Source of the DNA: Psammoneis japonica
Taxonomy: Eukaryota
Assembly (NCBI GenBank): GCA_008632985.1
Contig: QPGO01000084.1
Coordinates: forward strand, 310,001-368,300
Direction: 5' to 3'
DNA: 58,300 nucleotides
The notes beneath the pieces were generated by a model that was given only the letters and a program-made list of their open reading frames with translations, did not search any database and was not told where the DNA came from. Of the stretch, positions 4,261 to 58,050 are shown one piece after another (the first letter of the stretch is position 1; every line of letters begins with the position of its first letter). Both the position numbers and the translations under genes were made by a program.

Positions 4261-7200
4261 CCCTGGAATGGACGATTCCAACTATCATGGGTGACACACC
4301 GACCCTGTACAGTCTTTTCTCTGCGAATGCGGTTTGACGGGCCATAGACCGACCGAGCTCGGCTGGTCGACGAAGTAAGTTGGAATCGTTGTGTGCTACG
4401 GATAATGAGCTGACTTGGGCAGAGCCAAAGGAGTTGAGAAACATGCTGCAACTACGAAGGCGGAAATCACACACCGGAATGATGAACAATGCCTTCGGAG
4501 GTACGTATCATGACGCGACCTTCGGGTATTCTTGCATTGTTCAAAGTAGATTGTGTGGATGATGAGGACATGCATGACTGCTGAACGCGGTGCTAATAAA
4601 ATTGGAATGCCGCAGTGTAAGTCAAGAATAGAAAGGGTAACCATATTAGTTCGAAACACGCGTCACTGTTGTTGTTTTTTCGGGCTTGGTTGCGTGGCGA
4701 TACTGCATTATCATTACACTCTAGCTTTGAGAGGATAGGGACGACGCGGGGGCGCTAGGCTGACTTTGAGGTTTTGACTTACTCGCAAATAAGAAAGCAC
4801 AACAAAAACATTTCTGAACCGAACAAACAATGTTCAATCCCCCTCCTACTCCACGATATCCGCTTCGCCAGGGCTAGAACCGCCCTCTACGAAAGAAGGC
4901 CAACACACCAAAACTTCCCTGCTACAAAACGATACAGTATTGAATTAAAAGTATGTCAGTGTTTATTGGATGCTACTTGCAAACTAAGACCAAAACGATC
5001 CAAGAGAAGCGACAAGGTTACGCGAGACGGGCTTTCTTCCTAGCTTCACATTGCTTCTGGAGTTCTTGAATCTGCTGGAGGAGGGCACGGTCGCCTTAAT
5101 CGTCGGCGTCATGACCAGAAGGTTCGCCAGCTGCAACTGCAGCAGCGGTATCGACACGACAGCCTTCCACGGAATCTTGAGCAACAGTTTCGTCGTTGGG
5201 GTAAACGGCGGTCTCGAGGCGGGGTCCGAAGTAGCGAATGATGCGATCCTGGAGTCCCCTGCCGGTGCAGAATTTCTTGCCAGGAAAGTCACTTTTCTTT
5301 GCCTTGTTGTTGAGTGTTTCTGTTCTCCTGCTCATCACAGTCCTTTCCACCTTTCGGATCTTCCCTTCACGTCATCATGGTCAAACTGGGCGGTGGTGCA
5401 GACAACTGCAATTTGCAATTTTGTGCATGGTGAAATTCTTTCGATTTGTTCACTGCTGCACGAACATGCTCAATGCCTTTTACAAAACTGCCACACGGCT
5501 GTCTGCAGCCTCATTACATCTTGGCCAAACAAAGAGCTCTTGATCCAATCGAATGTGACAAGGGGACACGATTTCTTGTACGGAACGCCAGAACACAAAA
5601 GAAATACCCCCAGCATGACAAAAGATGTCGGTGTCGCCAATTTGAACCTGAGAGAGAGAGAGAGAGAGCTTGTCCACCGCATTCGAGGGTTTTTGAGGAC
5701 GAAGAACATTGGCTCTGTACCCACGAGTCTATCTCACCTACCTTTTCTGAACGCATCGCTGTCCATACCGTTCCAACAACTTAATCCTTGAACTGCAAAG
5801 AGTGCTGGAGGCGCCAGAGCTTTGATATCCAAGGCGTCATATGCATTTTGCCCAGTTCGGTTTGAACTGAATTGTTTCTCGAGTTCATCACTTGCCTATT
5901 CTTGGGCTCATAATGAAAATTCGGTCGGGTGTCCATGCTTGGGCACGGGTCACTTATAACGATCAGTCTTGGCACCAGCCATGAGCAAAACCGCATTGAT
6001 TCAATGACGTGGGTGGCCGTTTCTAGTTTACATGTCGCAGAGATCGGAGCCTTCATACAAGGTCGATGCCGTGTCTTGTCGTGGAGACGCAGAGACGCAA
6101 ACTGTGCCATGTCATGGTGACTTTAGGGTTGGTACAGAAGAGGGACAAGCCGCTGCCTAGAATTCCCAACGAGTTAACTTTTGTGTGTCAGTAGGAGAGC
6201 TGTAAACTTCTGACTGAAACGACGGGTTGAAAGTTACAAACGTCCTTCTCGATTCATCCATCAGTTGCTATGTTTCCGTAATCGGTGCTGGCGTCACCGA
6301 ACCCGGTTTTGTCGTCAATCTCTTCAAAGGTATGATTTGCTGGTTCAACATTTTGCAATTGGTACTTCAGAGTCAAATAGTGAAGAACGATTCTGCTCTT
6401 GTTTGTGATAATCCTCGTGATCGTATTTGTATTGTCGATATGGATAATGTCCCAAACAACGGAAGAGTCATCCAGAAGCTCATGTTGGATTTCTCTGAGA
6501 ATGATGAGGCCATGACGAGCTCTCTCCAAACAAAAATTGCAATTCTATATACAATGGCGGATAGCATTACATCTCAGCGAGAAGGATCGGGAGGCATGGC
6601 GCCGACATGGTAGCTAGCCGATCCCTGCCAAGGTCCAAGTCAATTTATATCCAGAATCCAGAGGGCGATTTGCCACCCTCGTGGTCAACCAGCAGGAGGT
6701 CGGTTCTTTTCCTCTTTGTGGCAATCTCCACCAAGTGATTCTCTTCCCTTTGTTGCGACATGACATCAATGAGCAGCTTAGATGCTGGAGCGGCCCGAGA
6801 TGCGTGACAAACTCTCCATGAGATTGGTTTCGAAGCTCCGCCATTACCCTGCTCTTTCCGAAGAGCATGATAGAGGTTCCATTCATGAATCGCAGGGTGT
6901 TGGTGTCAAGCTCCGTACGACAATTTTACGTAGCTTTCTACGTCAGTTTGAGTTGTGAAAAACTCCTTCCGACGTCAGTCCCCCGCCCGATTTCGCGGAA
7001 TCCGGAATTGCACAAAGAGCGAATTCGTGTCGCGTGCTGTCGACAGCAGCTGATGGTCGCTCCCGGATGCAGCGGTGCACGATTCAGCTAAAGCGCTGTT
7101 CCAGCTAAAAGCAGGACCATCGCAAACAGTGTGAAAGTTTCAGGAACTCGGTTGTCTGTTCCTTTTCATGAGACAAAGACGTGTTTGTTCACATTGTCTC

Positions 7201-9399
7201 TCTAGAGGAGGTGTGACATTATTTGTGCGGCCTTTTCATGGGAAGTCTGTTGCAAAATTCTTGCTGCAGGTGCTCCATTTTTTCTCTTTTGCCGGTGTCT
7301 CAACAACAAGCTTGGCTTCCAAAGCAAAACATCCCAGCACATGACAGCCTGAATTGGAGTGTGCCAACCCATGAATTCTCTTTCACATCAACGCCACACA
7401 CACTTCCACCCCAGCAACTTTTTCATGTCAGAAAAGGCCTCTGTGTGCCATGCTGCGAGCCTGAGTTCTTGAGCTGCAAAAAAGTGACCCAAGCACTGGA
7501 AGCAGAGACCAAGCTCATTTCTCCAACAGACTGCAACTTTCTAGAACTGACCAAGTTATCAAAACTCCAAGCGACAGCCTTTCAAAGGTCCCAACAAGGT
7601 CCCTGGGTGTTGCACATGTGCCTTTTTGGATTGGCGTGTTGGCGGAAGTTGTGAGAGCATCTGGAGAGTTTTTGCTTCTGATTTGAGAGAAACTGTTGCC
7701 ACACTGAGCAGCCCTGTTGGTCAACCCCACAACTGGTGCAATGCCCCTCTGGACAAGTGCATTGATGGGTGTTGTGCTGCCACCACTTCATGGCTGGCGC
7801 CACTTGCGGCTGATTGTGTCCTGTCCACTGATGCCCCACTGGGCAGCCCCACCCAACATCGTCCAAATTGTTTGTGCAGCAAAATTTGTTCTTTTCCAGA
7901 TTGGCAGACATGCGTGTGAGTTTTTGTGCTGTTGCCTCATGACTGTGCACAGTTGATGAAAGGTTGGTCAAAATCTTCAAATCTTCCCGAGCCCTGCCAG
8001 GTGACCCCGCACATGGAGACATTCCATCCAATGCATGTGTGAACACATGCTTGTGAGCTTGCACCACTGTTTTGCCACTGGATGACTGGCAAGATGCTGC
8101 CTTGGATTGCAGGGCATGTGTGCAATGCCTGCGCATCTCCTGACGAGCAACCCTTCCACCACGTTTGTGCTGCCCCCCCCCCCCCCTGCAGCAAAAGCTG
8201 ACGCATGTCCAGGCACAAGGTTTTGCCGCTGCTTCTTCAGTTGGAACAGCTGACAAGATGCTGTCTCTTGTTTGGAACAGCTGACAAGATTTTGTCTCTT
8301 GTTCCTGTGTTGTCACAAGATCAAGTGTCTCATCTGCCCAGCCTCAGTGGGTGGCTTGTGTTTGCAATCAGTCTGATGTCGAGGTCTCTTCTCCAGCATT
8401 CGTGGGTTTCGGCCCCGCATTTGGAGAGACACAGCTGCACGGAAGATTGCTTCTTCAACAAAGGGCGGCTCACTTTGGTGAAGAAACAGAATTAAAATTT
8501 AGAATTGCATTGGATGGGGTGCTGCAACAAAGAGATGCCAGATGCGAAACACACAAAGAACCTCGCCAATCTAAGTGCCGGTCGACGGAAACTGCCGCTC
8601 ACCACAGACGCGGGAAACCAAGCCTGAGGAGAAGAAACAGAGCCAAAAAATTAGAAATGCATTGCATGGGGTGTGGCAACAAATGAAAGAGACACCAGAG
8701 ATGCACCCTCTCACTTCAGTGCCGGTGCATGTCATGCATGCCACTCCTGCAATGGATGCTGAAAGTCGCTCGGATGGCTTTTTCACGACGCGGCATTTCT
8801 GAAGGAACCGAGTTGCGTTGTCGATTTGGTCGCTTTCACATGAGTTTCTTGCGCATGAGTTTCAATGAGCCGCTGAAAAGAGAAAAAGGAAGACGATTGC
8901 AATGAGGGGCATGGCAAAATTTGATGCATCCAATGCAATGAAATGCAGCAACACAACAAGAGGCGTTCGGCAAATGCTCACACACCACAAGAAGCAACAA
9001 ATTGGAGTGGCAAGAGGAGCACAATTGCATTTTCAAAATGCATTCACTCATGACAAGCGAACAGAGAAGTGAGCGCACCCGCATGTGACCACAAGGGAGA
9101 GCAACAGCAGAATCACGAAGGAGAAAACAGCGGAGTGAAGGTGTGTGGCATCATGTCGGTGTGAGGTGTGAGGTGTGCATGTGCGTTTCAGTTTCCCTCA
9201 CTTTTGGCCTGTCAAAGGGATTGCCCGTGTCAATTTTTAACATCACATGTTTGTTCGTCTGCTTGCATGTGGATGAACCTTAAAATCAACACGAAGGGCC
9301 CATTTTTTTTGCACCGCGTGTCACATCCCGTCTGACTGGACATTCATGTCCCTGACCCGGGCATGTTGTCAAGAATGTGCTTCAAGTGTGGAGGAGGAG

Positions 9400-9537
9400 A
9401 TGCGTTTGCAAAATTGCCTCTTTTTCTGTTGGCGATCATTCATGTGTCCATTGCTCAATGATTTTGCTGCGGAGCTCGCACGCAGAATTCTACGGGCCCA
9501 ATGTCACAAAAAGTCCCACCCAGGGCTGGAACCCGTC
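9400..9537 (+). mobile_element. Right end of a mutated copy of the GACGCGTTCCAG-TIR MITE family
   Basis: gcaaaattgcctc...ttgctgcggagctcgcacgcagaattctacgggcccaatgtcaca...cccacccagggctggaacccgtc matches the right ends of the copies at 40318, 47630 and 55329, with TA>TG/CA changes. Confidence 0.75.
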
Positions 9538-10209
9538 TGTCCATCGCCAGGCGACAGAGGTCAAAATCTGACATTGCTTCTTCGGCAGGTGACTCAATCT
9601 CACTGTCAAGAGCTGTCCTTGGTGAGGAGTGAAATCAGGTCTGCTTCAGCATTGCCCTGACAGCTGCGCTGAACACAGAGAATCTTCTTTCGCAATGCAC
9701 ACACGACAGAACACATGGCTGCACTTGTTGGTGCATGTTGAGAGGCTTTCATCCAAAACAAATGCACACAACCACTCTGGGCGAGCACCAGGGCATGCAA
9801 GCAAGTCACCACCCTCTTTCACAAGAGCAGTTGATGGCGCAAATTCATGAATGCAGTTGGAAATCGGCTCCGGCAGTGCTGCGGCGATGGACTTCCCGCA
9901 CAAGAACCCCACATCAACCGCAGCGCCCGAAAGCATTGAATTGGTTGACGACGACTCGAGCGACAACGAATCATCGATGCCGGAGCGCACTGTGGAAGAA
10001 TGGATCATCCAAGCCTTCACTGAGAACCCCAAGCTCGAAGAGAGTTTGTTTCGTGCAGGCAAGATTTTGGCATTGCACCATCTCTTGGCAACCGACGATC
10101 GTGTTCAACACGTCGTCATGGGACATGCACGTCGTGCCATGACCGCACATTCATCCCCATCGGAGCAACGGGAGCACTGGAGGGCTTTGAGTGCCCCAAT
10201 TTGTTTCAC

Positions 10210-10548
10210 CTGACTCTGACATGTTGGCAGGCTCACACACCACTGCATCCACAAAGGCTGTTGTCATTTCCTTTGTGTCAAGCATGGTCTTGCTGATTGA
10301 CAAGATCTGTGCTTTCAACCAGATTGCCTCAATGACTCTCCTGTCACACTGGACATCACAAGCAATCGCAGCCTTCTTTGAGTGGTGCCACCCAGATGGA
10401 TCCATGATGACGCAGACATTGCACCCTTCTGCAACAAGAGCTTTGAGAAAACCACAGAGCTTGTTCTTGGCATCATGCACAGATGTTGAACTCCAAAGCT
10501 TGAAACACAACCAAGAAAAATCCACACCAACCGCTGGTTTTCCCTGAT
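10210..10548 (-). pseudogene. Possible XPG/Exo1 N-terminal (PIN-like) nuclease fragment, TA-mutated
   Basis: GKPAVGVDFSWL...LVAEGCNVCVIMDPSGWHHSKKA resembles the GK.vavD.s.W / v.vfDG...p..K pattern; weak match. Confidence 0.3.
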
Positions 10549-10949
10549 GGTCAGCAGAGTCAGCAGCAGTGGCTTGCTTGGAGCATGTGCTGAATGAACA
10601 CTTGACCACCTGGCAGTTTCTCAATCTCGTGCACAATTTGTGACCCGCCGTTGATTCCCGCTGCTGCCAATCAAAGCATCTGTGCAACTGTGGCGGAGTT
10701 GACAACAGACTGCCGCAATGCTGCGAGTGATTGAGGCAAAGCACAATCTGCCACTTCCATTCTGACTGCACTTGCATTGTCATCATCATCAGCAACATGT
10801 CATTCCCACGGTTGGTGTGGCATCTGGCATGATTTTTTTGTTTGTTTGAGTCAATGAACTGATGGAAGGACAGGCCAAGTGAAGCCATTTTTTCAGACAG
10901 CCCATGTCACCCAGTGGTGCAGTGTGAAGTGCAGATGGCACAGTGGGAT

Positions 10950-12430
10950 GAAACGGTGTCATGCGGGTGGGGAACAGGAGGGTTCTTGGGGTTGGATTGG
11001 CAAGTTGTGAGGTTGAAGTTTGGTGGAGCGGCAAAGAAGTTGGTCAGCAAGGATTTGGCGCTCATGAGACTGAGACTTTGAAAGGCCCGTTGGCTTTGGG
11101 TGGTGTGGTGGTGTGTGAGGCCAAACCTGGTCAAGGTGATGGTGTTCCAGGCAGTTGTGGCAGTGGGAAGAAGGCCGGTGGGGAGAGTTGGGCATTGGTG
11201 CAGGCGGTGCAAGCAGATGGGTGGTGAGAGGAGGATTCCAAGTTCCAGGGTGGGAGAGGTGGGGGGGGAGTGGATGTTTTTGGGTGTCGCCAAACAGGAG
11301 GTGATGAGTGAAGCATCCAGGCGAGCCAATGTGATCAATGGTGAATGGCACAAGGCAGATGCCAGCATCATTTGAGGGAGTGATGACAGCAGTGCCGTGC
11401 TGAGTCTTGTGGGTCACGCGGAATTTTCATTTTGTGCTTGTGTGGTGTGCCTTGGTCACAGGGTCTTCAATGGGGGCAGGCAAGCCAGGTGCTGGAAGCA
11501 GCAGGGGCTTGGGGGGNGGGGGGGGGGGGGGGGTGGCAACATTGACAGATTGACAGCAAGGCAGGAGTGGGTGGTGGGTGCAGCAGCAGAGGAGGCAGGA
11601 GTGAGCTTGACCTCAATGTTGGCAGGGTGCTTGAGTGGTGAATGTGGGATGAGGTTGGTGGGTTTGTGGTGGACGTCTGAGGAAGGCCATCATGCAGGGA
11701 GTTGGGCTGGGTGACATTGTGGCCAAGAGAGCAGCAGCAAAAGGCATGATCTCCACATGGGTCAGGGGGCAAGCCAACCAGAGGAAATGGCAGCTGTGGC
11801 TCACATTGTGGCATGAGTTGACAGACGGCAGGTGACAGGCACTGGGATGTTTTGGAGCGGGTGAAAGAGGAGTGCACAATGGAAGACTTGCCAGGGGTGA
11901 GAGGATGGATGAGAGTGCAGCGGTGACATGTGGCAGGACATGGCTGTGGAGGTGGTCAAGTTTGTCAGCACAATGTGGGTGACACATGGTGTGAGAGAGG
12001 GTCTTGAGTGGACAACACTCAACTGGAGCAGGGAGTGAGGGGGGTGGGGGGTTTGAGGCATGGCAGCAGAGCATTGCCCCAGTCCCCAGTGACAGAGTGC
12101 TTTGTGCAGACTGAGGGATTGTCTCAATGTGACCCAAGTTTGGAGAGAGCAGGCACAGAAGGGAAGCATGAGTCGGGGGGTTCATCAGTGGAGGAGGTGA
12201 GGCCGTGGGGGTTGCATGGCAGAGGGAGCAGGCCAGTGTTGGGCAGTGAAGAAGAGGGTGGCGCTGGCTGGCTGTTTTTTGCTGATGCACACCTGACACC
12301 AACTGCAGATGCAGGGAGGTGGGAGAGTGGCAATGTGTGTGGTGGAAAAGAGGGCCTGGGTGGGTGGTGAGGTGTTGAAGGAAGGTGTGGCAGTGGCGTT
12401 GGGTGTTTTGTTGGAAAGGTGACATCCACG
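10950..12430 (-). mobile_element. Degenerate non-LTR retrotransposon 3' region (CRE/R2-like, zinc knuckle plus restriction-like endonuclease)
   Basis: Minus-strand remnants SRSKTSQCLSP...LPF...DPCGDHAFCC...NSLHDGL, VDVTFP and LVPFTIDHIGSPGCFTHHLLFG; many frameshifts; both TA and CG depleted. Confidence 0.5.
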
Positions 12431-12989
12431 CGGTGTGTTGTGTGGAGTGAGTCTCAATGCACACGATGGAAGAGACTTCTCTCCCGTGACAGCTTGTGGC
12501 TGCACAGTCATTGAAGAGACGGACCAATGTTTGGCAGAAGACCAGTTCGCACTTAAAATCACATTTTTGTGTGTGAGTTCATGCCATTTGCATTTCCATT
12601 GAATTAGAGAATAAATTCCCTCAACGAAAACAATTCCTGCACTGTCACTGTTTGATTCCTCGCGTGATCTGCACTCGCCCCTCAACGGAAGAATTGTCTC
12701 TCCCACACTTGCACACTCACCTGCCTCGGGTTGCTGAGAAAAAAACCAACATCCGGGTTCAACGACAGCTTCAGAAGCGCAGGCCCCACACAGCAGCGGC
12801 TGGCATGTCTCTGCGTGTGTGCGCAAATTTGTCACGTGCCACATGAGAAGCTTGTGCTTCTCACACGCATGAGGCTACGACCAGCACAAAGGCACCTGTT
12901 GTGCCGGTCAGACATTTTGCATTGGTTTTTTTTTTTGGCCATCAACAAACCAGAATGCGCCACAAAAGTAAAAAAACATTTTTGAAATC

Positions 12990-13830
12990 ATGGACAGTGT
13001 GTCACCCGAAAATGGACTCTTTCCTTGCTGTGTCAAGAACCATCAGGACAAACCTGTCTTTGCCAATCAGAAAATCACGTTTGGGGCCATGGCGGACAGT
13101 TTCTACGAGCACATGCTCAAGGTGTGGTTGCAGGGCGGAAAGGCGGAAACAATGTGCCGCAAAATGTGTGACAAGGCGATCCAGGGCATGCACGATGAAT
13201 TGCCACACACGACACACGCCAACGCCGTCCGGTCTCACCTGCATTGCCGACAAGAACAGTGGTCGTGTTGATCACAAGATGGACCTTTTGGTTTGCTTCA
13301 TGGGAGGCAAGTTTTTCGCTTTTCTCCCGTGATGCTGGTGGTGTTGTTGGTCCTCATTTTCCTTCCCATGGCTTGCTTTCTTGTTTTGCGGTTAGGATTG
13401 CTCGCGCTTGGAGCCTGCACGGACCCGAAAGGCCTTGATTCGGACCGTGCTCAACGCGACCTCAAGACTGGAAAGGCTCTTACCTGCACGTGCTGTCAAA
13501 TGCACGCTCGCATGAACACGGGCATTTCGGCGGAATGGGTTCAGTTCCACCCCGACGAGGACTTTGCGATTGGTCACGGCTCTCCTCATCATCTCTTGAG
13601 ACCGGAAGCGGTCGAGTCCATGTTTGTTCTCAATCAACTCACGGGTGATCCAGCGCACCAAGAATGGGGATGGACCACCACAAGACAAGATGGAATCTTT
13701 CTTCTTGGCAGAGACTCTCAAGTGTTTGCATTTGTTGCAGGATCCAGATGCTGCACACCCGTGGACATTTTAGACAAGCATGTCTTCAATGCGGAAGCAC
13801 ATCCAATGCGAATCTTTCCAGCAATTGACA
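12990..13830 (+). pseudogene. Glycoside hydrolase family 47 alpha-1,2-mannosidase, 3' fragment with one intron (13307-13395)
   Basis: FGAMADSFYEHMLKVWLQGG, DHKMDLLVCFMG|GLLALGA, LLRPEAVES, DKMESFFLAETLKCLHLL, HVFNAEAHP; removing the gcaagt...ttag intron restores the frame; deletion after EWGW; Tyr>Cys/His throughout. Confidence 0.9.
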
Positions 13831-14030
13831 AGGAAGGGAAGCAAGCAAGCAAGCAGGCCCCACTCCATGCTCTAGCAGAGGGCCCTCCACCATTTTGGAG
13901 AGAGAAGATTGGGGCTACGGCAGTGCGACCACGGTGTTTTTTGACGATGTCATGTGTTCAACACAAAGAGTCCGTCGCATCTGTTCTCAATCAATGTCTC
14001 CGGAAATGAAATTGGTGTGAAAGTCTTCTT

Positions 14031-14216
14031 CTTAAAAGCGGAGCTCGTTCAAGCCGACGTCATCCAACGGTCGGCACGGAAAACCGTCAGCCGTTAGCAC
14101 ATGAATCGCCAATCGCCAACGGTTTCCCTGTCTCTCGCCACATTTTTCCTTCCACCACGAGAGAGCAGCTCACAATCTAGACGATCATTCGCTTTTCATG
14201 CCGCTCCACTTTTAAG
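14031..14216 (+). repeat. 5' LTR of gypsy 1
   Basis: Direct repeat of 22670-22855 with 6 substitutions; inverted termini CTTAAAAG...CTTTTAAG. Confidence 0.95.
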
Positions 14217-14231
14217 TGGTGCTTCGACACG
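14217..14231 (+). promoter_or_regulatory. Putative primer-binding site
   Basis: TGGTGCTTCGACACG directly after the 5' LTR; TGG is complementary to tRNA CCA; the tRNA is not assigned. Confidence 0.6.
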
Positions 14232-14259
14232 TCATTCGAACACATCATCTTCGGTCTGC

Positions 14260-16756
14260 ATGACCATGGCCGATCAACCGCCGGCTAAACGCGTTAAAAC
14301 GCAATCCACCGACGAATGTCTCGCCAACCCCCTGTCCAAAACTTTCATCCCGAAACAGCGCATGTCCCACACGCATGGACGAATCACCTTCTCTTCTTGT
14401 CCCCCCCATCACCGCCAAAATGGGCGACGCCGAACGATGCTTGGCATTCAACATCAACAAAAATGCCGTCAACAGCACGTCCGGACTCACCCATGCCAAC
14501 TGTCTCACAATCATGGGCAATCTAACGAACACCATCAGCCTTGTCTAAGTTAAAACCAACGAATTCAAGACAACGGGCAAATCCTCCCTCAAGCAACCGG
14601 CCAACCTGACGGCACTGTCCCACCACAACACAGCAGGCAACCTCATCCAAAATTGCCTTGACGACGAAGGGCAACTCAGACCGATCCAAGACGGACCCGT
14701 GGCAAATTGCCGCCCCGACGGAATCATGTGCGCCAAAATCAGAGGCATCATTGACCTTGCGTCCCTCAGCGAATCAGCCAGGAATCCCACGATCACGTTC
14801 TTTGTTCGTTTGCCTGTGGAGAACGCAAACGTAACCAACGCCGCCAGAAACCAAGTGAATCCACTCACCTCCAATGGCCCAAGCAACTGCATCACATTGG
14901 ACAATCAAGCTTGTCAGGATGTCATCTGTGACAACAACGATGACGCCATCCAAGAGCCACTCGATCTCCAAGCACCCAATTTCACTGACCCCGACGAAGC
15001 AACCATCTCCACCGAAGCAAAAGGCATGAGGATTGATGCTCTCATCACCCAAGCAGGGCACAAGACCATCCTAAATGACGTTTTTACGTCCATCGCGCCC
15101 ACATTCGTGGACGACCCATTCAAAATGCTCAGCCGAGTCCATCAAACCACTGCCCAGTCAGACGGGACAACCATCTCATCGACAGTGCAAGAATGTCGTG
15201 ACAATTGCAATGTCGCACTCAGTGCCCTCCCCAATCACCCAGACTCCGAGTGGCAGTCCAATCCTCTTCGCACATTCGTGGACAATCTCGATCCCCAGAT
15301 TCGTCAAAAGATGGAGTCGGATGGATTCCGACGTCATGTGGAAACGGTGTCACTACGTTGTTCTGACCAAACAAACCTCATCCAGGAGGCGTTCTCAGCC
15401 GCCAAGAAAGCGGAATCAGCTCTTGCGGCGAATCGTCTCTTCATTCAAGGCGAGCTCCATGAGACTCACGGCTTTGCTGCCGTTGTTCAGCAATCCCCGG
15501 CGTCCTCATCCCTTGCATCCATGAACACTCCCACTCACCAGCAAGCTGCAGTCAATCACAGCGCAGCCGAAACTGCTCTCAATCGCTGCAAGACCGCAGG
15601 CAAAGGCTGTTGGGGCTGCGGATCAACCGATCATCTGTGTTGTGACGCCAAAACCAAAACCATCACTTGTCCCAGGGGTGCAGAACCAGAAATCCAGAAG
15701 AACGCAGAAATCGTCCGCAAGGACTTTGTTGAACGCATGAAAAAGTGCCGAAACGGAAACCGTCGCCGTGCCCAAGGACAATCCAACGCAGGCAATCTTC
15801 TGCTGTCAGCCCTGCTTTCCCCTCAATCTCGGACCGGAGGGAACGATGAAATCACGAAGCTCATGCTCAGCTCCATCAAACAGTCGCTGCTCGGAAAGGA
15901 CAACGGCAAGGAGGAGAAGGAAAAAGAAGCATTCACGTTCCACTCCTGCGTCCTCCAATCATCCACTCCGAGCAATCTGCCGCAGCCACCAATCCCGGTC
16001 AACAACACACTTCCCCACATCGTCCTCCAGCTGGGATCACCCGACGCTACGTTCAACCCCGGCATTCATGCCATCGTGGACAGCGCCGCTGCCCCAGTCT
16101 GTGGGAACAGCGACCACTGGATGCCTGTCGCCAAGGCTTGTCCCGAGCTCGTCAAGAGCACCTGTCATGCGAAGGATCATTGTTCGCACATCATCCTCTC
16201 CGGCGTCGTTCAGAAGGACGACAAAACGAAAGTTGATGCATCCACCAACCTTCCCGCAGCTCTAGAATTTTTCATGCCATGCATGACGAAGAATGGTCAC
16301 CCCACGTCACTGAAGATCGCAGTCGGGAAGAGCGTCTCGGCAAACTGCATCATCGGAATGAGCTTCATCTCGACAGCTCAACTCGTCATGGATTTCTCTG
16401 ACAACGTTGTCGAGTCCAAACTTCTGGAATGCGAACCATTTCCAGTCGAATGTCGCACCCCATCATGCTCGACACCGAAGATCATCCCTCGCACGGAACC
16501 GGTGTCCACACCGAGCTTGATTTCGATCAAGCAACAACTTTCCGATGTTGACAAGTTCATCACGAACTGCTCACACGATGACAAACCTCGTGCAGAAATC
16601 CTCACCAACTTGACTTCATCACGAGTCAAGTTCGACCTTGGTCCATCAACGGCCACACTTTCTGGTTGGTGCTGTCCCATGCCCAAACCTCTGTCGCACT
16701 CCATGATGTCAAAATCAACACATCAAGCCAACCAGTTGCATCACGCAAATCACTGA
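14260..16756 (+). pseudogene. gag: gypsy 1 ORF1: Gag (zinc knuckle) plus aspartic protease, frameshifted near the 5' end
   Basis: 685-aa ORF 14699-16756 containing CWGCGSTDH knuckle and AIVDSAA...CIIGMSFI protease motifs. Confidence 0.8.
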
Positions 16757-35700: not shown

Positions 35701-35734
35701 ACTTCCACAAAGTCAGGCTCTGTCGTTTCTCTAT

Positions 35735-40715: not shown

Positions 40716-40881
40716 AGCTCCACAAAATCAGCAATGCAGTGACAAGCACAGCAGATTGTCTTGAAAATTGTGTGCTCACAGTGTGCCTCATGCACTCTGT
40801 TCATTGGATGGCCATGCCTTCCTCACAGCATCAGATTGTGGCTCACCCTCCACAAAGAGACAACTCACTCTCTGAGCCACT

Positions 40882-41260: not shown

Positions 41261-41269
41261 TTGTGTGTG

Positions 41270-45400: not shown

Positions 45401-45623
45401 AATCACAAATAAAAACAACGCTCGAGAGAATGCTCGACGCACTCCTCACACGCGCAGAGTGGGAGAAAAGACACCACTCGAGAAAGACTCGCAAAAATCA
45501 GAACAGCCCCATGTTGGACCGCATGTGACAACAACGGCACACACTGATCGCACAGTGCAGATCAAACGCGGCAATGTTGTTGACACTGTCAATGTTCGTC
45601 GAACAATGCCGTTTAACGACTGA
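42423..45623 (+). pseudogene. pol: gypsy 2 Pol (protease, RT, RNase H, integrase)
   Basis: VLLDSGTS; SLDLNMGHCH, RLPMG, TRIDD; YTDASKSQLG, EKELLSIVE; LLHPG...CETC, CVDLIGP, CDRGSEF, NPQANAIVER. Confidence 0.95.
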
Positions 45624-45649
45624 CTCCAATGTGCAATTGGGGAGGCGAG

Positions 45650-46000
45650 TGCAACATGCGTTGTCATGTGCGCACCATGTGTGCATGTCCACATGTTAAA
45701 CAAAAGCATGTTTCAATCGCACGTCAATCGTGGGTTCGCACAAAGCACAGATCAGTCACACAGAAGTGATTGGATGTCGAGAATCGCAAACGCGATCGCA
45801 TGATGATGTTGACGGACAATCTGTCGTCACGATCATGTTCTCCGAAAGGCCTTTTGTCTGCAGGAGCAGCACAAAAGGTTTGGGCCATTGAGAACCCGTT
45901 CGGAGAAACCCAAAATGATTGCGCAGAAACAATTCTCACAATTTTCACTTTTTGAACTTCATTCTACTTTCGTTTGCACTCGTTCTTCGAGCACAGTGCA
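45650..46000 (+). repeat. 3' LTR of gypsy 2
   Basis: Follows the PPT; ends in cagtgca and is followed by TSD CACT. Confidence 0.92.
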
Positions 46001-47629
46001 CACTCACTCCAAAGCTTCCCAATCAGAAAAGTGGCTTGCTTTGTTGTGTTGGAACTGTGGCTGCAAGCATCGTTCTAAAAATGTCTGAGGCTGAAAGCAT
46101 CAGTGTCAAAATGTCTTTGAGACGCACTTTCATTCCTTTTCTGTGAGAAAGGCAAAAAAGCCTCTGAAAGATTTTCTCGTCCACAAAGCAAAAATTAAAA
46201 CATCTTCTTGTTTCTCTCCCCCCCCCCCCTTCCCCTGCAATCTTTCCACATGTTGCATCTGCTGACCCATCATGCTGTCCCTGGGCAGCTGCAAAATGCC
46301 ACATCACAAGCAATGGAAAGATCAGCAAATGAAATCTGTGCATTGCTGTCAGAACTCTGTTTTCACATCATGGCCATGTTTGCACCTCAAATGTTGGCAA
46401 CAAGAATGGAGCAAGTTGACGCCCTTGCATTGCATTGCCAGTGGGTAGAAGAGGAGAACACTTGCACCAAACAGAGCCTGAGCCCCAAGAAGCAAAGCTG
46501 CCAACAACTGCAGTTCTCTGCACAGAGTCAGTTGGGCTGTCTGGTGCAAATGAATCACTCAAATTCTGAGAATGATCGTTGAGGGCATTGGAGTTCACAT
46601 GGGAACTGGCACATGGAACTGTTTTTCAGAAGAGCTCAAAACTGCTGAAAATTGGGATTGCTGATGGCGGCATCTTTGAACATTCACCCAGCTTTGCACA
46701 AAGACAATTTGTTGTGAATTGCACATAAAGCACTCACACTGGAAAAGAAATGTTGAACAATGAGTGAGTTTGTGCAGCGCACTTTTTGGCAGCAAACCAG
46801 ACAAAAAAGAGTGTTCGCGAACCTTGCTGCAGCCACAAAAATGGCATGAGCCATCAAACACAATGTGGTTGTCTGCATCACTGGTGGCCCCACCACCCCA
46901 CACACTGCTGGCTGCCACAATGCAGAATTGCCATGCCGCCCCAGCCACAGGGCCCTGTGCACGCATGCGCTGTTTGACAGCAACAACCAAAGCAGGCGCT
47001 GTGGTGCAACAGCACACACCCACACCAACAAAGAAAGACAAGTGGCCAATGCTCCCTGCAGGCCTGGTTAAATCTCGAACTCCATTCTCGCGTCCATTCT
47101 TCGCAGGATGCAAATGGTTTGTTGTGTCCGTTTCTCTTCTGGCTGGAGCTTTTGACTGCTTCGCCACATTGCCTTGAGCATGGAGTCCATCCGCTGGCTC
47201 ACATTGGGGGTTCACCGCCTTCATGGCCCACTTGCAAACTTCATCATCTCTTTGATTTTGAAAATTTCATTTCGTTGTTGCACACAAATTTTGATGTCAT
47301 GATTGGCACCTGGATTGCCTCTGTTGGCGACACTGCTGTCCGTTGGAAATTGGCTCATTTTGGCGTGCCGGCACAGCCTTTCTTTGATTTTGAAACTTTT
47401 GTCTGATTGTTGTGTTCAATGTTTCAATGTTCTGATTGGCACTTGGATCACCTCTGTTGGTGATGCCACCATCCGTTGGAAATCAGCTCATTTCAGCACG
47501 CGTGCCCATTGTTTGGGGCATGCCATCCGCCCGCTGGGATGTCGGTCTGCCACCTTGCATGTGCTGTGCAGCAGGCTAATTTCACTTCCGCACTGCATTG
47601 TTTCACTTGAGTGTCGGGGCAATTTGCAC

Positions 47630-48018
47630 GACGCGTTCCAGGTCTAGGTGGGACCTCGCACTACTGAACTGTGACATCGATAGTTTTTTGAATCTCGTCG
47701 TATGTCGCGCACGTAGAATTCTACGTGATTTTTTGATATTTTGTGTCATTTTACGGTACACTTATTGAGCGATCCGTCCAAAAACTTTTGACATTTTTTG
47801 TTACAGCGCGATTCTATAATGTCTTAAGAATCGCGTAGGGCAGGTGCATTTGCAAAAACGTCGAGTGGTAAGAGGCATAATTGCACCACAAACTTGGCCG
47901 TTTATTTGATGTTGAAGATAAATATATCCATTAATTAAATTCTTGTACTACGGAGCTCGCACGTAGAATTCTACGGGCCAAATGTCACACGGAGTCCCAC
48001 CTAGGGCTGGAACGCGTC
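47630..48018 (+). mobile_element. MITE copy C (389 bp; same ends, different interior)
   Basis: Same 12-bp TIRs, TSD GCAC, subterminal palindrome CACGTAGAATTCTACGTG at 47710-47727. Confidence 0.9.
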
Positions 48019-48316
48019 GCACTGTCCTCAATGTGCAGAAACCTTCAAAACCCGCCCGACGATTGGATGGGTTCACTGATGTCATGGACATTCATGAGGA
48101 TGCACACATCATCACGACCCAATCCGAGTTGCTCAACTGCTCATGACTTTGCGGCAGCAGCATGGGCACGGCCCACCATCTCTTGCAGCTGGGAGTTCCA
48201 GTTCCGGCTTCAATTCTGTTTTTTTCTTTTTTTCTTTTTTTCTGGCTGGCGCTGCTGCCTCCGATGACATGGGCACGCACACTGCACTTTGTGCAGTGTG
48301 TCGGCAGCCAAGATGG

Positions 48317-48541
48317 TCTGTCCACACAGTGTGGGGGAACAAAATGGACGGAATTAGATCTGCAGATTTGTTCCCTGTTTTCCAGCTGCTGTCTCAGCAG
48401 CACCACACACGAACATGTGTGCTCGTGTGTGTTTCCACACATTGGATGTGTTCGTGCATTGATTGTTGCATCCATTCGGCAGCTTGCACTGTGTCATGTC
48501 ATCGGGGTTGCAGCCAAGCTGAGGTGGTGGCAGGGAATCTG
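48317..48541 (+). repeat. TA-mutated duplicate of 49859-50085
   Basis: Collinear ~225-bp direct repeat; 16 of the 17 TAs of the other copy appear here as TG or CA. Confidence 0.95.
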
Positions 48542-48767
48542 GAAGTCGCAGCAAAAGCACGGAAAGTGCATTGAGTGTCGCACTGGGCACGCTTGCACTT
48601 CTCAGCGTAGAATCTACAATGGGGTCACGTGAACAGGACATCTGAATCCACATGTTGCCCTCTCACTTTCAGTTGAAAAAATGCTTGCTGCCCAGTCAAT
48701 TCAAACACATTAAATTGCTGGGTGCAACGATTGTTCAATGCAGCCACAATTCAACGGAAGGCAGTCA

Positions 48768-49590
48768 CATCGTGGAAAGCATTCCACGACTCAATTCTGT
48801 CGTGGAAAGTCTTTGCTTTCTGCGATGCTGTCGTGGAAAGTCATTGAATGTCGTGGAAAATCATTGGTGACTGCTCATCATGGAAAGTCATTTGTCAAAT
48901 GTTGATGACTGGAAACATCGTGGTTTGACGTCACACACTCTAAATGTCAAAGAGGGGTGAGCCACATTCCATCCAACTGGTGTTGCGCAATCACGCACAC
49001 GGCCTCGAAGCATCGTCGATGCTTCTTGATGCCATGGCAAAACGTCTCCGAAAGGCATGCGAAGTTCTTGATGCGTGCATCAAGGCCTCCTGACGAGACC
49101 GAGCCCGGCTCTTGAACTGGTTGTTCCAAAATCATGTTGGAAAATGGCAAGATTTACAGGCATCAAGGCGTTGCGATGAGATCAAAATTTTGTCATATGA
49201 CCCCATTTTACGTACAGGCATTTACACAAGCCTCGAAAGGTGGAAAGTCATCGTGGAAAGTCACATGACTTTCCACGTTACAATCGTGGAAAGTCTTCAC
49301 TTTCCACGATAGCATCGTGGAAAGGCTATTCCACGATGTACCGGTAATTCTATTCTATCGTGGAAAGTCATTGATCAAAAACGGTCATAATGACCCTCTT
49401 TTAATGAACACTTTATCACTATATATAAAACATTATCACTCAACGGTTGCAACCAAAATTACTTAGGTTGTAAGGGCAATATAAAAAGGGAAATATAAGT
49501 TATTAATAACATATTAATAATTTGATATTTTCATATATATGAATATTATTATAATAAAGTGGAAAGTATCCGCGACAGACTTTCCACGCT
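48768..49590. repeat. Array of TCGTGGAAAG / CTTTCCACGA motifs in both orientations
   Basis: Roughly 15 full or partial copies in clusters at 48770-48890, 49240-49370 and 49559-49590. Confidence 0.85.
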
Positions 49591-52599: not shown

Positions 52600-55500
52600 A
52601 CTCACCAACACGTTTTCAGCTGTTGTTTCTGCTACCGCCAACTTCAGGCGAAGTTTTTCCAAGGTCCAGCATGCTGGTGCTGCAAGCTCCAAGCACCCAG
52701 GGCTGATCCTCATCTCTGTGTGAGAGCCACTGTCAAACTTGTTGAACTTTTGCTTGTTTTGCTCTGCACTTTTAAGGCTCAAAACACCGGATTCATGCAG
52801 GGCGGAACTCACTAATTGCAGCTCTGCTTGTTGTGAGAAAAGACATGTTGGCTGTCACCAATGACAAAAGATTAGATCTGCAAAAGTGTGGGCCAAGGCT
52901 GTGTGGTTCAATGGCAAAAAAGAAACAACAAGCCCTCCGCACAGTGACAAAACATGTCTGCCAGGCCAAAAATGCCACAAAAAGAAAATTGGTTTGGGTG
53001 GGGGTTGAAAAAGCTTTTTCTGTGACCTCTGCACCACCAAAAAGACCTGCCAGAGAAACAGGGAGTCCCAAGCAGCATGACCATGAAACACCAAATTTCA
53101 CAATTGTGTGTCTTGTGCAGCTTGTTGCAGCTTGTCAGTGGGGTGGTGCACCAGCCACACACACACACACATCAGCAGTTTTTCTTCTCTGGCCTCAGCT
53201 CCTGCCAGGTGCTTTGTCATGCAACATTGTGTGAAGAAGTGCTCCAAAAGGACCTCAAGCTTGCCACCAAAAGTCAGCCTGTTGGCTGGCTGCCCATCAG
53301 AAGAATGGTTCAAATAACCCACAAAAAGAGGTGGTGTGTCAGCTGCTCACTGAGTGGAAAGCACCAAGGAGACTGGCTCCTGTTTGTGCCATTGCATGCA
53401 AGTGTGGCCAACTGCTGCCCTTTTCTCCCCACAACTTCTTTTGTTTCAAAATGGCAGTGGAAGCCAAAAAGCCACCAGAGAAGCCAAGTGGCCACAGACA
53501 CTCTGTGAAAATGTCTGCACTTTTTCCTGTCTGCTCCTTGCTCTGGGGTTGGAGGGAGCACTTCACAGCTCTGGTGAATCTTTTGTCCACTCCAGATATG
53601 CTCTCAAGATCTGCTTTGCTGGTGCCAAATTTTTTTCTGCTGCCTTCTCTGCTGCTGCGGCCAAATTTGTGGGTGACACTCTGTCAGTTGTGCAAATGCG
53701 GAGGCTCTTTCAAAGCAAAGCAGCACAATCAAGAGGACATTTGGTGACAGAATCTGCACCACACCATGCTTCCCATCCTGCAAGCCTTTTCATGTTTTCA
53801 CCCTCTCTTGTTCATGTCAGCCATTGGCGTCATTGTGCTCACAAGACTCAGAAGCATGGGGAGCTTGATTTGCCACCAAAAAATTCAGGACCAACAACCT
53901 CTCCACTCTTGTCTTTGTGATGTTGCAGCAATCTCTCTCGTGCTCAATTGTCAGAGAGAGGTGCTTTGGGAGAGCCAACGAAGGCACTCATCAACACCCC
54001 ATTGTTGCTGGCTCTGTGCTTTTTCATTCTAAAACATGCAACATCAGAGATTGCTGTGTGCACGCAGCAATGTGTTGGAATGTTGCAAACATTGTGCAAA
54101 CATGATGACTCACTGCCACCAAGCTAAAACACCGCTGATGCAAGACCATGCAGTGGCATTTCTTGATGCATGTGTGCAACCTCTTTTCCTTGATTGGTGG
54201 GACAATGAAGCAATGACAACCAGGGCTCCTGTGGTGACAAGTTGCTGCACTCAGGGAGAAAGCATGAGACGCGACCAGGAGCACTCACTTGTGCTTGAAA
54301 CAATTGCTCTGGGGTGTTGCATTCTGGGCAAGTGATGGATGTGCACTTTTGCTTTCTCACAGGACCGAGCAACCAGTCACCAAACACAAGAACTGTGACA
54401 GAGCAAGAACCCACCCTTTGAGGTGTGTCATCCATGCGGTGTCTGGAGTGTACAGTCGCTGGTCAACCTGTCTGGCAGGAGCTTGCACACAACGCAAACA
54501 TGGGCCAGGGCAGCACAGTGCAAAAAGCCTTGTGGTCACAAATCAAGGACCAGCTTAAAACTGGGACTCTGGTTTGCTGCCACATGTCCGCAGCCAGTGG
54601 GAGCAGCCACAGCGTCCCCTTTTTTTTGTTTGCAACAATCCTGGTCATTGATTGGCTTTCAAGGGAGCACATTTGCTGGTGCAGAGAGCCCAGTTTGTCC
54701 ATGGAGAAGCCTTTGCCCAACCATGCCTTTTTGCACAAGAATTTCACTGTCTGTTCAATGAAGTCAGGGCAAGCCAACAGCCACATGGCCTTTGCATTGT
54801 CGCGGTCATTGGCAGACCACCAGAAAAGCTTGTTGAATTCAATGGATGGATCCACACAAAGCTTTCCACAGAATTCGTGCATTTGGCCTGGGCAATGAGC
54901 AAAGCATGCTTGACAATTGTCTTGGTCTTCATTGTGACGCACACAGTTTGCCCTTCCAATTTGTCAAACAAAGCAAGACCCAGGGCTCTTGTCTGTTTCA
55001 GCTGCCCCACTGAAATGGAGTTTTTGTCTTCAAAGGAGGATTTGGTCTTGCCAGCATGCACATCTTGTGCTCTCCAGGGGTGTGCTGAAAGCAACCCCAA
55101 TCTTCATCTGCCTGTGTGTTCCCCCTGGGAGGGCAGCAATGAAATTTCATGTGATGAAAGTGACTCTTGATGCGTGCTGGGAAGTTTTCAAGGGACATCT
55201 CTTGAAGCTCCCCCTCCTCTGCGTTTTGGACAAATTGTGTTGTGCAGGGCAACACAAGCCTCCTGTTGTCCTTCACAGACCCAACAGAGTTGTCCTTGTT
55301 TTTCATCAAGGGTGGACAATGGCAAAAAGACGCGTTCCAGCCCTAGGTGGGAGCTCGTAGTACTGACGTGTGACAACAATAATTTTTATCATCCGTCGTA
55401 TGTTTCGTACGTAGATTTCTACGTGTGATATTTAAAAAAAAATTGTCCATACTCGCTGTTTTGCGAAGCCCCAGACGTTTTATATAACAAATTTATAGAA

Positions 55501-58050
55501 ACAATAATGCGCCAGTTACATTCTTCAATGTCTGAAGAATGTAACTGGCTAAGTAAAAAATGATGTACTTCAATCATGTGCGAGTTTGTGCGTTCGCAAA
55601 ATTGCCTCATTTTCTGTTGGCGATCATTGACATTTAAATTACCGTATAATTTTACTACGGAGCTCGCACGTAGAAGTCTACGGGCCCAATGTCACACGGA
55701 TTCCCACCTACGTCTGGAACGCGTCAAAAGGCCCACATCCTGCCCTGTTGCCATTGTTCGAATCAACACAACCTGCTGAGAACAAAATGAGCAACTGCAG
55801 TTGGATGGATTTTGAATGCTTGCTTCTGCACATGAAAGATGGAGGGAGAGAGCCACTCTCTTGCATGGCTCCAACAACCACAGCCTCAACAGTGTTGTGC
55901 GGTTGGAGCCACACTTTTGTTTCTTTTTGAGTGGCGCAAAAAATTTGTGTTGAAAAGCATCACCAGCAGGGCAGCTGCAACAAGGTTGGCATGCAACAGA
56001 CTGAAATGGAAATTTTTGCGGCCATCAACATGAGAAGATTTGTGCTCAACTCAAAAATGTTGCTCTGTTGGATGGGCACACACAGACATGCAGGGGTCGT
56101 GCCAATCACCACATGCTGTTTTCCCTCTTTTTTGGGGTCTTTCACACCAATGGAATCTTTCATTCAAGTGCTCTGCATTGTTTTGTGCTGATTGACATGG
56201 GCTGCTTCTGCAGCTTTTGCAACAAGACATGTGTCAAAAACAACACACACATCTGTCAAGACCCCTCAGAAAAATGACAGCCGTTGACCACTTCACCTGT
56301 GGGGTTCCATGTTGCTCCAGCATGTGATGTGCACACCAAACACCAATCACCACGATGAAAAACTTTGTTGCTCGTGTCATCTTGCAGCACCCATTTCAGA
56401 TGCAAGAAAGGCAAGAGAAAAACACACCAACTCAAATGTGCGCGATTTGATTGTGCAATTGGATTTTACATTTGAGATGATTGTTGTGCTTGTTGAGAGT
56501 GCCGTGTGGCCGTCAATGTTGCAATGGCAGTTTTCAATGTTTGTCGGGTGATGGGCGAGCGATGATGAACACTGTTTGTGTGTTGCACGTTCGTCGGTCA
56601 TTTCGCAGACAAGCACAAACAAAATGCCACCACAGCTGCAGCAAAATTGCTGAAACAGGACTCATGTTTTAGCAGATTTTGCTTCAAAGGATCTTTGAGA
56701 TTGCCGTGCATGCCCTCTGCTCTCTGCTCAGCTCCACTGGCCAGCAGGGGCAGAGAGTGAAGAGATTGCCGGCACAGAATGGATGTGGCAGCCAGACAGA
56801 GAGTGGGTGTGCAACAGCGGTTGTTGCCCTCATGGCATGAAGCAGCACAAATGATGAAGGAAGAGGAGGAGGAGGAGGAAAGGACAGGTGCAAAACATGA
56901 GTCACTTGTGTGTCTTTTTCACATGCTCCTCATGAACAAGAGTCTTTGGAGGTTGGCTTTTGTGCACATGCGAGTGCATGCTGTGAAGCACCAAAACACA
57001 TTTTTGACATGTGTGGAAATGGAAAGCATCATTTGAAGGAATTGTCCTTCTCAGTGGCTCTGGCAACTGCTGCAATGGGCAAAAAATGTGCGCTCAAATG
57101 AGTGTGTCCCCGGCAACAAGTGATGCAGCTGCGTGGATGTCTTGAAACAAAACCTGGCAACAAGTGCAGGGTGACACATTGCAGATGAACAAGAAGGAGG
57201 GTCTGTCAAGGACAAAAACACAAGTTTCTCCAGCGGTCATTCTTCTTGGCCCAGCCATCCCTGTTCCTTGGCATGTTGCAAGACAATTTTGGCCAAAACC
57301 TTGAGGAAGGGATCAAGTTCTGCGTGCTTGTCAATGTCAACGACACTTTTCACCAGCACAAGCACTGTTGCAGGCCTTGCAATCCACACCATTGCAACAT
57401 GAGCTTTGTGCAAGACAGTGAAGTTTGTCCAGACCCTTTGCAACCTTGGCCACGTGGCTCAACCATTGGGCTGTGCTCTGAGCTCTTGCAAAAACCGCTT
57501 TCTCCGATCCAACAAGCATGTGGCCAGCTTCAGCTGCCATTGAAACAGTGACACTTGAGATCATCACTGGCATTGTGAACAGCACACAGAAAAAATTTAC
57601 TCCAACTTGTGTCTCTGGAAGCCTCCCGGACCTCGAACGTGCTGCTGTCCATCACAACAAGCGCAGAGCGTGCCGCACCAATGCGTTGTGCATGGCTGGG
57701 CAAAACCCAGTGTGCATCAATCACATTTAAGACGACTCGAAAACGACAAAAGAATGTAAAAGCAACACTCTCATTGTCTCAGTCCTTTGCCATTGTCATG
57801 GAATGTGACAGCTTCGGAGACAAGAAAAATGGTGAGAGCTTGGGTAATGAGCACAAAATTCGCCCGTTCTCGAGAAAACACCCCGCGCGTTGAAACCGCT
57901 GTCGCCACACGCGTGCTGTGCACTGTGCAGCATTGGCGGTGAGTTGACGTGCTAGAAGAAAGCGTGGACAGATGTTCGCTTGGCCGGTTTCCAAGTGGAC
58001 CGAACATCATCGAGACAGGATGCATCGGTTTCTTTAGCAAACAAAAACAA
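52600..58050. other. TpA- and CpG-depleted hypermutated domain 3, content unidentified
   Basis: Almost no TA outside the MITE; many overlapping Cys/His-rich spurious ORFs. Confidence 0.85.
55329..55725 (+). mobile_element. MITE copy B (397 bp)
   Basis: Same TIRs, TSD AAAA, near-identical to copy A. Confidence 0.92.

Follow-up and report, generated by a model that had tools for sequence, protein, structure and literature searches.

Three blocks of a 58,300-nucleotide stretch of the nuclear genome of the diatom Psammoneis japonica (GenBank assembly GCA_008632985.1, contig QPGO01000084.1, positions 310,001–368,300; this whole stretch is hereafter the window, and all positions refer to it) have lost nearly all of their TpA dinucleotides, which were converted to TpG or CpA on both strands. 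The affected DNA includes two Ty3/gypsy long terminal repeat (LTR) retrotransposons, designated elements A and B, and a pseudogene of a GH47 alpha-mannosidase. The original prediction for this DNA had proposed a domain-restricted mutator that changes TpA to TpG or CpA on either strand, destroys transposon genes and works in the opposite direction to fungal repeat-induced point mutation (RIP), and the analysis upholds it on each of these points. We place the probability that targeted TpA>TpG/CpA hypermutation within the chromosome is real at about 0.88, a figure that covers the process and not the enzyme behind it. The process is of a kind already known from one preprint, in a host of another phylum (Bigelowiella natans; bioRxiv 10.64898/2026.01.13.699255), which supersedes the earlier statement that no such system had been described. 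What is new is a second, distant host, in the diatoms; in addition, the targets are ordinary retrotransposons mutated to saturation, the process acted after insertion, and the sequence motif is extended.

Dinucleotide counts confirm that the three blocks, as predicted, are almost without TpA, and that the interleaved gene-bearing DNA is normal. The observed/expected ratio (O/E) of TpA is 0.08 at 7100–22900 (72 TA in 15.8 kb), 0.25 at 39000–49150 with three TA-normal islands counted in, and 0.14 at 52600–58050 with one such island counted in, compared with 0.58, 0.59 and 0.69 in the DNA between the blocks. In 1-kb intervals, the ratio lies at 0.00–0.18 across 7–22 kb, mostly at 0.03–0.12 across 39–49 kb and 52.6–58 kb (TA-normal islands aside), and at 0.46–0.84 in gene-bearing DNA. 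After removal of the four islands, the depleted set of 29,070 bp contains 129 TA (O/E 0.07), where mononucleotide shuffles yield 1783 ± 32, and the normal set, 26,302 bp of gene DNA, contains 1106 (O/E 0.60). The longest TA-free run extends over 3063 bp (9491–12554), and the domain edges are resolved within about 50–200 bp. TG and CA are gained in parallel in the depleted DNA (O/E 1.60 versus 1.19 and 1.58 versus 1.16, respectively), and the GC content rises with the loss of TpA from about 41–44% to 49–52%. The AT, AA and TT steps are the same in depleted and normal DNA (ApA O/E 1.23 versus 1.14); general GC drift is therefore not the cause. TpC is also without depletion (O/E 1.15 versus 1.11).

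The polarity of the change was determined from conserved tyrosine columns of the coding regions, compared with their homologues. In the depleted part of the pol region of element B (pol B), the 16 columns conserved as Tyr (70 of the 120 homologues listed) now read Tyr in two cases, Cys in eight, His in four and Arg in two. Only one of 15 such columns is kept in the GH47 copy (64 homologues), the others being six Cys, four His, one Arg, one stop and two Phe, and none of eight is kept in the pol region of element A (pol A; 116 of the 150 relatives listed), where four Cys, three His and one Phe are found. Pooled over the depleted DNA, Tyr is retained in 3 of 39 columns (18 Cys, 11 His, 3 Arg, 3 Phe and 1 stop), compared with eight of nine, the ninth being Cys, in a TA-normal island within pol B (Fisher p = 3.7e-6). 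The peptides in which the original prediction had read this exchange were found at 17510 (SGCHQI), 43443 (NMGHCH) and 13720 (KCLHLL). An alignment of pol A to the homologues of pol B was discarded as too noisy, with 257 of 378 conserved columns scored as changed, and pol A was compared with its own relatives.

The remaining excess replacements (I>V/T/M, N>D, M>V and L>S/P) are those predicted from TA>TG/CA, and in pol B the first-position A>G changes are preceded by T in nine of ten cases. Relative to its own island, pol B has 13 instead of 73 TA per kb, 79 instead of 49 TG and 96 instead of 72 CA, with a GC content of 49% instead of 41%. The relatives do not point to an ancestry poor in TA and rich in Cys and His: the two pol regions of the window contain 0.4% Tyr, versus medians of 3.9% and 3.5% among their relatives, which are also TA-rich. 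A metagenome scan with pol B produced 28 pattern matches and one true relative (L001, 45% identity), an outgroup and not a family copy, with a TpA O/E of 0.9–1.0. Comparison at the DNA level tells the same, and the predicted difference at TA versus TG/CA between paralogous copies in the window is found in a 229-bp repeat, in miniature inverted-repeat transposable elements (MITEs) and in LTRs. In the 229-bp repeat, the 17 TA of the TA-normal partner correspond to nine TG, six CA, one gap and one retained TA (a TTAG site). The polarised changes begin at TpA and not at CpG, and the direction of change is TA to TG or CA on both strands.

A 230-residue relative of pol A from public data (P0366) contains 0% Tyr, 5.2% Cys and 7.4% His. 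At positions where another, unmutated relative (P0317) has Tyr, P0366 reads His or Cys opposite to the choice made in the window, and it is an independently hypermutated copy.

The surviving TA are not a random sample of sites (Table 1; R, purine; Y, pyrimidine). YTAR accounts for 78 of the 129 TA surviving in depleted DNA and for 180 of the 1106 TA in normal DNA (p = 1e-25). Susceptibility follows the order RTAY >> YTAY/RTAR > YTAR, and TTAA is almost immune. The same ranking is obtained in two disjoint subsets. In elements A and B, TTAA shows no loss, other YTAR sites have lost about 65% and all other contexts 85–99%; in the older, CpG-poor DNA, the corresponding losses are 49%, 71–82% and 94–100%. 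Residual TpA in the LTRs of element A and in the island flanks is mostly in the refractory contexts. Tyr codons preceded by a pyrimidine became 11 Cys and 4 His, and those preceded by a purine seven of each (counted by hand; p = 0.12), which hints, without reaching significance, that change is more likely where the adenine has a pyrimidine on its 3' side. Contexts inferred from gains of NTGN were dropped as unreliable, the ancestral composition of the elements not being established, and the contexts of surviving sites were used.

Table 1. Tetranucleotide context of TA sites in the TpA-depleted and normal sets.
Context	Depleted	Normal
TTAA	31	39
CTAA + TTAG	35	100
CTAG	12	41
CTAC + GTAG	18	172
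TTAC + GTAA	15	123
TTAT + ATAA	12	148
GTAC	2	77
ATAT	2	108
CTAT + ATAG	1	125
GTAT + ATAC	1	173

The LTR pair of element B places the changes in time. Its alignment has 356 ungapped columns, 36 of which differ: 11 exchanges of TG in one copy for CA in the other (22 columns), three differences of TA versus TG/CA, four of CG versus TG/CA, and seven others. Since the two LTRs of an element are identical at insertion, these exchanges show that element B was mutated in the chromosome after integration, the same ancestral TpA having become TG in one copy and, independently, CA in its partner. About 90% of the inferred TA sites of this pair have changed, compared with a background divergence of 2% (7 of 356 columns); by this indirect measure, the rate is roughly 100 times background. 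The two strands of element B are about equally affected, with gains of 30 TG and 24 CA per kb and with eight Tyr>Cys and four Tyr>His replacements. Tyr>Cys and Tyr>His replacements alternate at short range, and runs tests made by hand on 10–12 sites were not significant.

Loss of CpG is superimposed on this pattern in part of the window. Element A combines a TpA O/E of 0.07 with a CpG O/E of 0.96, and the TpA process is therefore distinct from methyl-cytosine decay. The involvement of methylated chromatin suggested in the original prediction has no visible tie to CpG decay in element A, where CpG is normal and TpA is lacking. CpG-poor sub-domains (O/E 0.08–0.5) occupy 7.1–8.1, 10.1–12.6, 39.0–40.3, 46.0–47.0 and 52.7–57.7 kb. 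In these, TG plus CA reaches about 115 per 500 bp, close to what the losses of TA and of CpG add up to, and CpG decay is a slower overlay on older DNA.

The TA-free sequence was compared with reads by assembling contigs from exact 31-mers of a public run (X1), in which single-copy words have a depth of about 60–120. X1 contains 68% of the sampled words from 38.5–48.5 kb and is the sole one of three runs (one sample) with this stretch. Its contigs match the window with 0–1 differences at 46035–46397 (362 nt), 46780–47193 (414 nt), 54365–55356 (992 nt), 55978–56383 (406 nt) and 56572–57792 (1221 nt), and the reads carry TG or CA at these sites, not TA.

Several explanations without in-chromosome hypermutation were considered. 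The depletion could be an artefact in which silent chromatin carries a modification of TpA that is read wrongly, as TG or as CA depending on the strand, or in which repeats were left unpolished. Strand-specific miscalls at a palindromic dinucleotide would likewise give only TG or CA, and the run used as a check has an unrecorded library type and is possibly the source data of the assembly. Such miscalls would, however, create two read populations at each site, and the contigs, including the two that run for about 1 kb across depleted DNA, show none. TG and CA also alternate within a few bases, an independently mutated relative comes from another data set (P0366), and B. natans displays the same signature as de novo mutations called from Illumina reads, according to the preprint; an artefact is thus highly improbable. 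That there was no mutator at all, the DNA having always been TA-poor through foreign origin, codon usage or selection against TA or stops, or having been shaped by decay of 5-methylcytosine at CpG, is barely credible. The CpG-poor sub-domains do add to the excess of TG and CA, but TA is ancestral according to the conserved Tyr codons, the paralogous pair and the MITE copies, the relatives are TA-rich, element A has kept its CpG, and the constancy of ApT, ApA and TpT argues against drift. If the RNA or cDNA of retrotransposons had been edited ahead of integration, by an ADAR-like enzyme or by a deaminase acting during reverse transcription, this would account for the near identity of the element A LTRs, which lack TG/CA exchanges while the interior has lost at least 93% of its TpA, and for the exact end of the depleted zone at the 3' LTR of that element. 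Against it stand the about equal change of both strands in pol B, the exchanges that the element B LTRs gained after insertion, and the survival of TAG contexts, a 3' G being what ADAR prefers. Moreover, the GH47 pseudogene, a MITE copy and the 229-bp repeat are equally affected; since DNA other than retroelements was mutated, editing of RNA or cDNA is excluded as a general cause, and as an account of the window it is very unlikely.

Some observations weigh against hypermutation in the chromosome as set out here. The LTRs of element A show no TG/CA exchange in 187 columns, and four of their six differences are TA versus TG/CA at slow sites. Most of the depletion of element A may therefore predate its insertion, or its LTRs may have held few fast sites, or they may have been homogenised; a single in situ mode does not cleanly account for all of the observations. 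TA is now CG at some sites, namely in the three Tyr>Arg columns of the 39 (43617, 45453 and 12690) and at 2 of 21 MITE sites. These double changes need both bases to be altered and are not expected from single TpA-dependent hits. The TA-normal island within pol B is unexplained; it may have arisen by gene conversion, may have been protected from mutation, or may be a chimera of the assembly. X1 vouches for the reads but is not an independent sample, as it may be the assembly's own data. Finally, the deaminase candidate discussed below is weakened by the GAA preference of the ADAT2 enzyme whose action on DNA has been characterised.

In the reading that we favour, the A of nearly every TpA within sharply delimited chromosomal tracts, on either strand, has been changed to G, giving TG or CA. 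This has cost the two Ty3/gypsy elements their coding capacity, and an older MITE, unclassifiable older repeats and the GH47 copy caught in their midst are further casualties. The tracts represent transposon graveyards of the diatom nuclear genome, in which later insertions stay intact. We infer that the agent is a sequence-selective enzyme, which chromatin state or small RNA may recruit to silenced or foreign DNA and whose action may be episodic. A DNA adenine deaminase, producing hypoxanthine that is read as G, is our leading guess, a tentative one held at somewhat under even odds and in agreement with the proposal made for B. natans. The natural site of TadA is U-A-C. For the enzymatic step only, the alternative is oxidation of the T in TpA by a TET/JBP-type enzyme to 5-hydroxymethyl- or 5-formyluracil, or error-prone repair synthesis, which we regard as unlikely but deserving of real weight. 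TpA is palindromic, so that T>C and A>G are indistinguishable from sequence; 5-formyluracil mispairs with G; and the GAA preference of ADAT2, which is not one for TA, also speaks for such chemistry. The 5-hydroxymethyluracil of dinoflagellates is concentrated at TpA and TpC, a preference that the undepleted TpC of the window does not match; nothing in the window directly supports a thymine modification. Synthesis by a polymerase of the eta type, put forward in the original prediction, does not fit, because its WA hotspot (W, A or T) predicts a loss of ApA, and ApA is not depleted.

The features of the window are listed in Table 2. A Pfam search with 83 open reading frames (ORFs) of at least 90 residues from the depleted DNA outside elements A and B gave two GH47 matches and nothing else. 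The stop codons TAA and TAG are four to seven times rarer in depleted DNA (2.1 and 1.3 per kb) than in normal DNA (8.5 and 9.1 per kb); their scarcity leads to long spurious ORFs on both strands, and gene callers would over-predict. The sole N of the window falls in a poly-G run (11500–11535) within the 3-kb TA-free stretch and probably marks a homopolymer-length ambiguity of the assembly.

Table 2. Features of the window. Positions are forward-strand coordinates within the window.
Feature	Position	Strand	Details
TpA-depleted domain 1	7100..22871		TpA O/E 0.08; right edge is the exact end of the element A 3' LTR
Unclassifiable old DNA	7100..12500		Lacks TpA and CpG; wholly contained ORFs of at least 90 residues without Pfam match
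MITE, old, hypermutated	9401..9537	+	At 21 sites with TA in two or more of the three intact copies: 8 TG, 4 CA, 1 TA, 8 other
GH47 alpha-mannosidase pseudogene	12522..14006	+	Hypermutated; in-frame stop; poorly aligned stretches; adjoins element A upstream
Ty3/gypsy LTR retrotransposon A	14031..22871	+	LTRs 14031–14232 and 22670–22871 (97% identical); pol 17249–20959
TpA-depleted domain 2	38957..49150		Three TA-normal islands within
MITE, young	40318..40716	+	Terminal inverted repeat GACGCGTTCCAG; target duplication AGCT; 31 TA; inside depleted DNA
Ty3/gypsy LTR retrotransposon B	40882..46000	+	LTRs 40882–41260 and 45650–46000 (about 85% identical); pol 42423–45623
TA-normal island within pol B	43951..44850	+	69 TA, 28 of them RTAY
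MITE-related third copy	47630..48018	+	TA-normal; 28 TA
229-bp repeat, hypermutated copy	48317..48541	+	TA-normal partner 49859–50085, 1.5 kb away
TpA-depleted domain 3	52650..58050		CpG O/E 0.36; read depth about single-copy; no Pfam match in ORFs of at least 90 residues
MITE, young	55329..55726	+	97% identical to 40318–40716; target duplication AAAA; 32 TA

The pol region of element A contains reverse transcriptase, RNase H and integrase domains, and its LTRs are about 200 bp long. On the sense strand of this element (14232–22670), CA outnumbers TG by 116 to 62 per kb over the entire length. A milder skew of CA over TG on the sense strand is also present in TA-normal DNA, namely the element B island (−0.19) and L001 (−0.14), and the skew of element A is at least partly intrinsic composition, to which strand-biased mutation may have contributed. 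Element B has on the order of 100 related copies, judged by summed read-contig depth. The island within its pol region has sharp edges and lies inside a continuous ORF; two joints in X1 contigs (43260>44852 and 44001>45607) terminate near these edges. The named relatives of the GH47 copy are the diatoms Odontella aurita and Mayamaea pseudoterrestris.

The MITE family, with units of about 400 bp, is represented by four copies in the window and by a summed read-contig depth in the tens of thousands. The two young copies have clean target duplications and eight RTAY sites each, and differ from each other at about 10 sites, three of which are TA versus TG/CA (scored by eye), the only hint in the window of recent change of this type. 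A contig from X1 connects 40312 to 40715, which suggests that a form without the MITE exists at that site. The young copies were either inserted after the mutation episode or escaped targeting. Tandem-like units of about 180 bp (70–81% identical) at 26394–28152 are TA-normal, without sign of hypermutation.

Genes in the TA-normal DNA encode HIT, aldo-keto reductase, Mpv17/PMP22 and DDX10-type helicase proteins, and some depleted tracts come to within about 200 bp of intact genes. Among the 120 relatives listed for the DDX10 exon, the top match shows 72% identity, and the best named ones are diatoms, with Fragilaria crotonensis at 67% and Fistulifera solaris at 61%; the next named relatives are from Thalassiosira, Cyclotella, Skeletonema, Amphora, Attheya and others, and Bigelowiella is not among the 120. 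Large TA-normal frames without a Pfam match are present at 28447–31746 (three overlapping frames of 269, 373 and 516 residues) and at 50054–52456 (800 residues). The frames at 28447–31746, which have Cys-rich stretches, may belong to a mobile-element gene that has gone unrecognised and was spared from mutation.

Mutation-based genome defence has long been equated with cytosine deamination, as in RIP of fungi and APOBEC of animals. The diatom case implies that TpA hypermutation is not peculiar to one species or to giant-virus insertions, and two hosts can now be compared in the search for the responsible gene. The motif, with RTAY favoured and TTAA spared, can be compared with the de novo mutations of B. 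natans and tested in vitro on candidate enzymes. For base editing, a natural enzyme that turned A into G at selected sequences of double-stranded chromosomal DNA would be of interest. In diatom genomics, such tracts inflate ORF predictions, conceal transposons from homology searches and raise the local GC content, and cellular genes caught among transposons can become pseudogenes through them. It is conceivable, if doubtful, that the process is an old, dedicated defence common to diatoms and chlorarachniophytes (both within the stramenopile, alveolate and Rhizaria group), that one sequence-selective DNA-editing enzyme of the RTAY type, directed at silenced mobile DNA, performs it, and that it, rather than decay of methylated cytosine, is the main killer and eroder of this diatom's transposons and, on occasion, of genes next to them.

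Among known systems, 5-methylcytosine decay has the same end products, TG and CA, but starts from CpG and can neither remove TpA nor change Tyr codons to those of Cys or His. Element A, though stripped of TpA, shows none of this decay, which forms an overlay in the older sub-domains. Fungal RIP shares with the present case dense transitions on both strands in mobile or duplicated DNA, sharp edges and a dinucleotide footprint, and in both, transposons are inactivated and adjacent gene copies can suffer. However, RIP changes C:G to T:A (mostly CpA to TpA), adding TpA and lowering GC, whereas here TpA is destroyed and GC rises. RIP is also triggered by duplication. Here, element B with its roughly 100 copies is mutated, but the 400-bp MITEs, at far higher depth, are intact, the 180-bp array is TA-normal, and so is one of the two copies of the 229-bp repeat. 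Repeat-directed action in the sense of RIP, as originally proposed, is thus not demonstrated, and length thresholds or timing could account for the repeats that escape. For diatoms, part of one account (PMC9998398) notes a RID-related DNMT4, with no RIP-like footprint noted there.

APOBEC3, acting on cDNA, and ADAR, acting on double-stranded RNA of repeats, also produce dense, strand-wise transitions that cripple retroelements, and ADAR prefers a 5' U. These enzymes act before integration, on one strand and on retroelements, whereas the changes in the window arose after integration, on both strands and in other DNA too; the direction of APOBEC, C>T, is also unlike that observed here. Among natural enzymes of eukaryotes, deamination of A in DNA is reported only for the ADAT2/ADAT3 type, and its contexts are not TpA: the amphioxus enzyme BjADAT2/3 (PMC10354150) acts on hairpin loops of single-stranded DNA, where it prefers GAA when deaminating A and TCG when deaminating C.

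The closest system is that of Mettrop et al. (bioRxiv 10.64898/2026.01.13.699255, April 2026), the only match to the TpA>TpG/CpA signature in a full-text literature search. The preprint describes this hypermutation in integrated DNA of nucleocytoplasmic large DNA viruses (NCLDVs) and virophages in B. natans. In mutation-accumulation lines, 231 of 302 nuclear point mutations fell into one giant-virus and one virophage region, with 230 of the 231 being A>G or T>C changes that all lay at TpA. These mutations arose at about 6e-7 per site per generation and in only 11 of 15 lines, and activity appears intermittent. The B. natans genome is reported to contain 124 clusters depleted in TpA and enriched in CpA and TpG, the coding sequences low in TpA being enriched for reverse transcriptase and DDE domains, and an ADAT2-like deaminase is proposed (candidate Bn78255). 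The main text of the preprint gives no context beyond TpA and mentions no diatoms or other species.

The two cases differ in host, a stramenopile here and a chlorarachniophyte of the Rhizaria there, and in targets, which are LTR retrotransposons, a MITE, old repeats and a pseudogene of cellular type in the window, and giant-virus insertions in B. natans as the preprint presents them. Depletion in the window is near saturation (O/E 0.07), compared with a rho of 0.45 given for the B. natans NCLDV region. The extended motif, in which RTAY is erased and TTAA spared, and the divergence of LTRs after insertion are seen here and are absent from the main text of the preprint. De novo mutations were measured in B. 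natans, whereas the diatom process is known from standing sequence alone. Despite these differences, the diatom shares with B. natans the change from A:T to G:C at TpA, the regional confinement to mobile or foreign DNA, a rate far above background, and a lasting footprint of TpA loss with gain of CpA and TpG.

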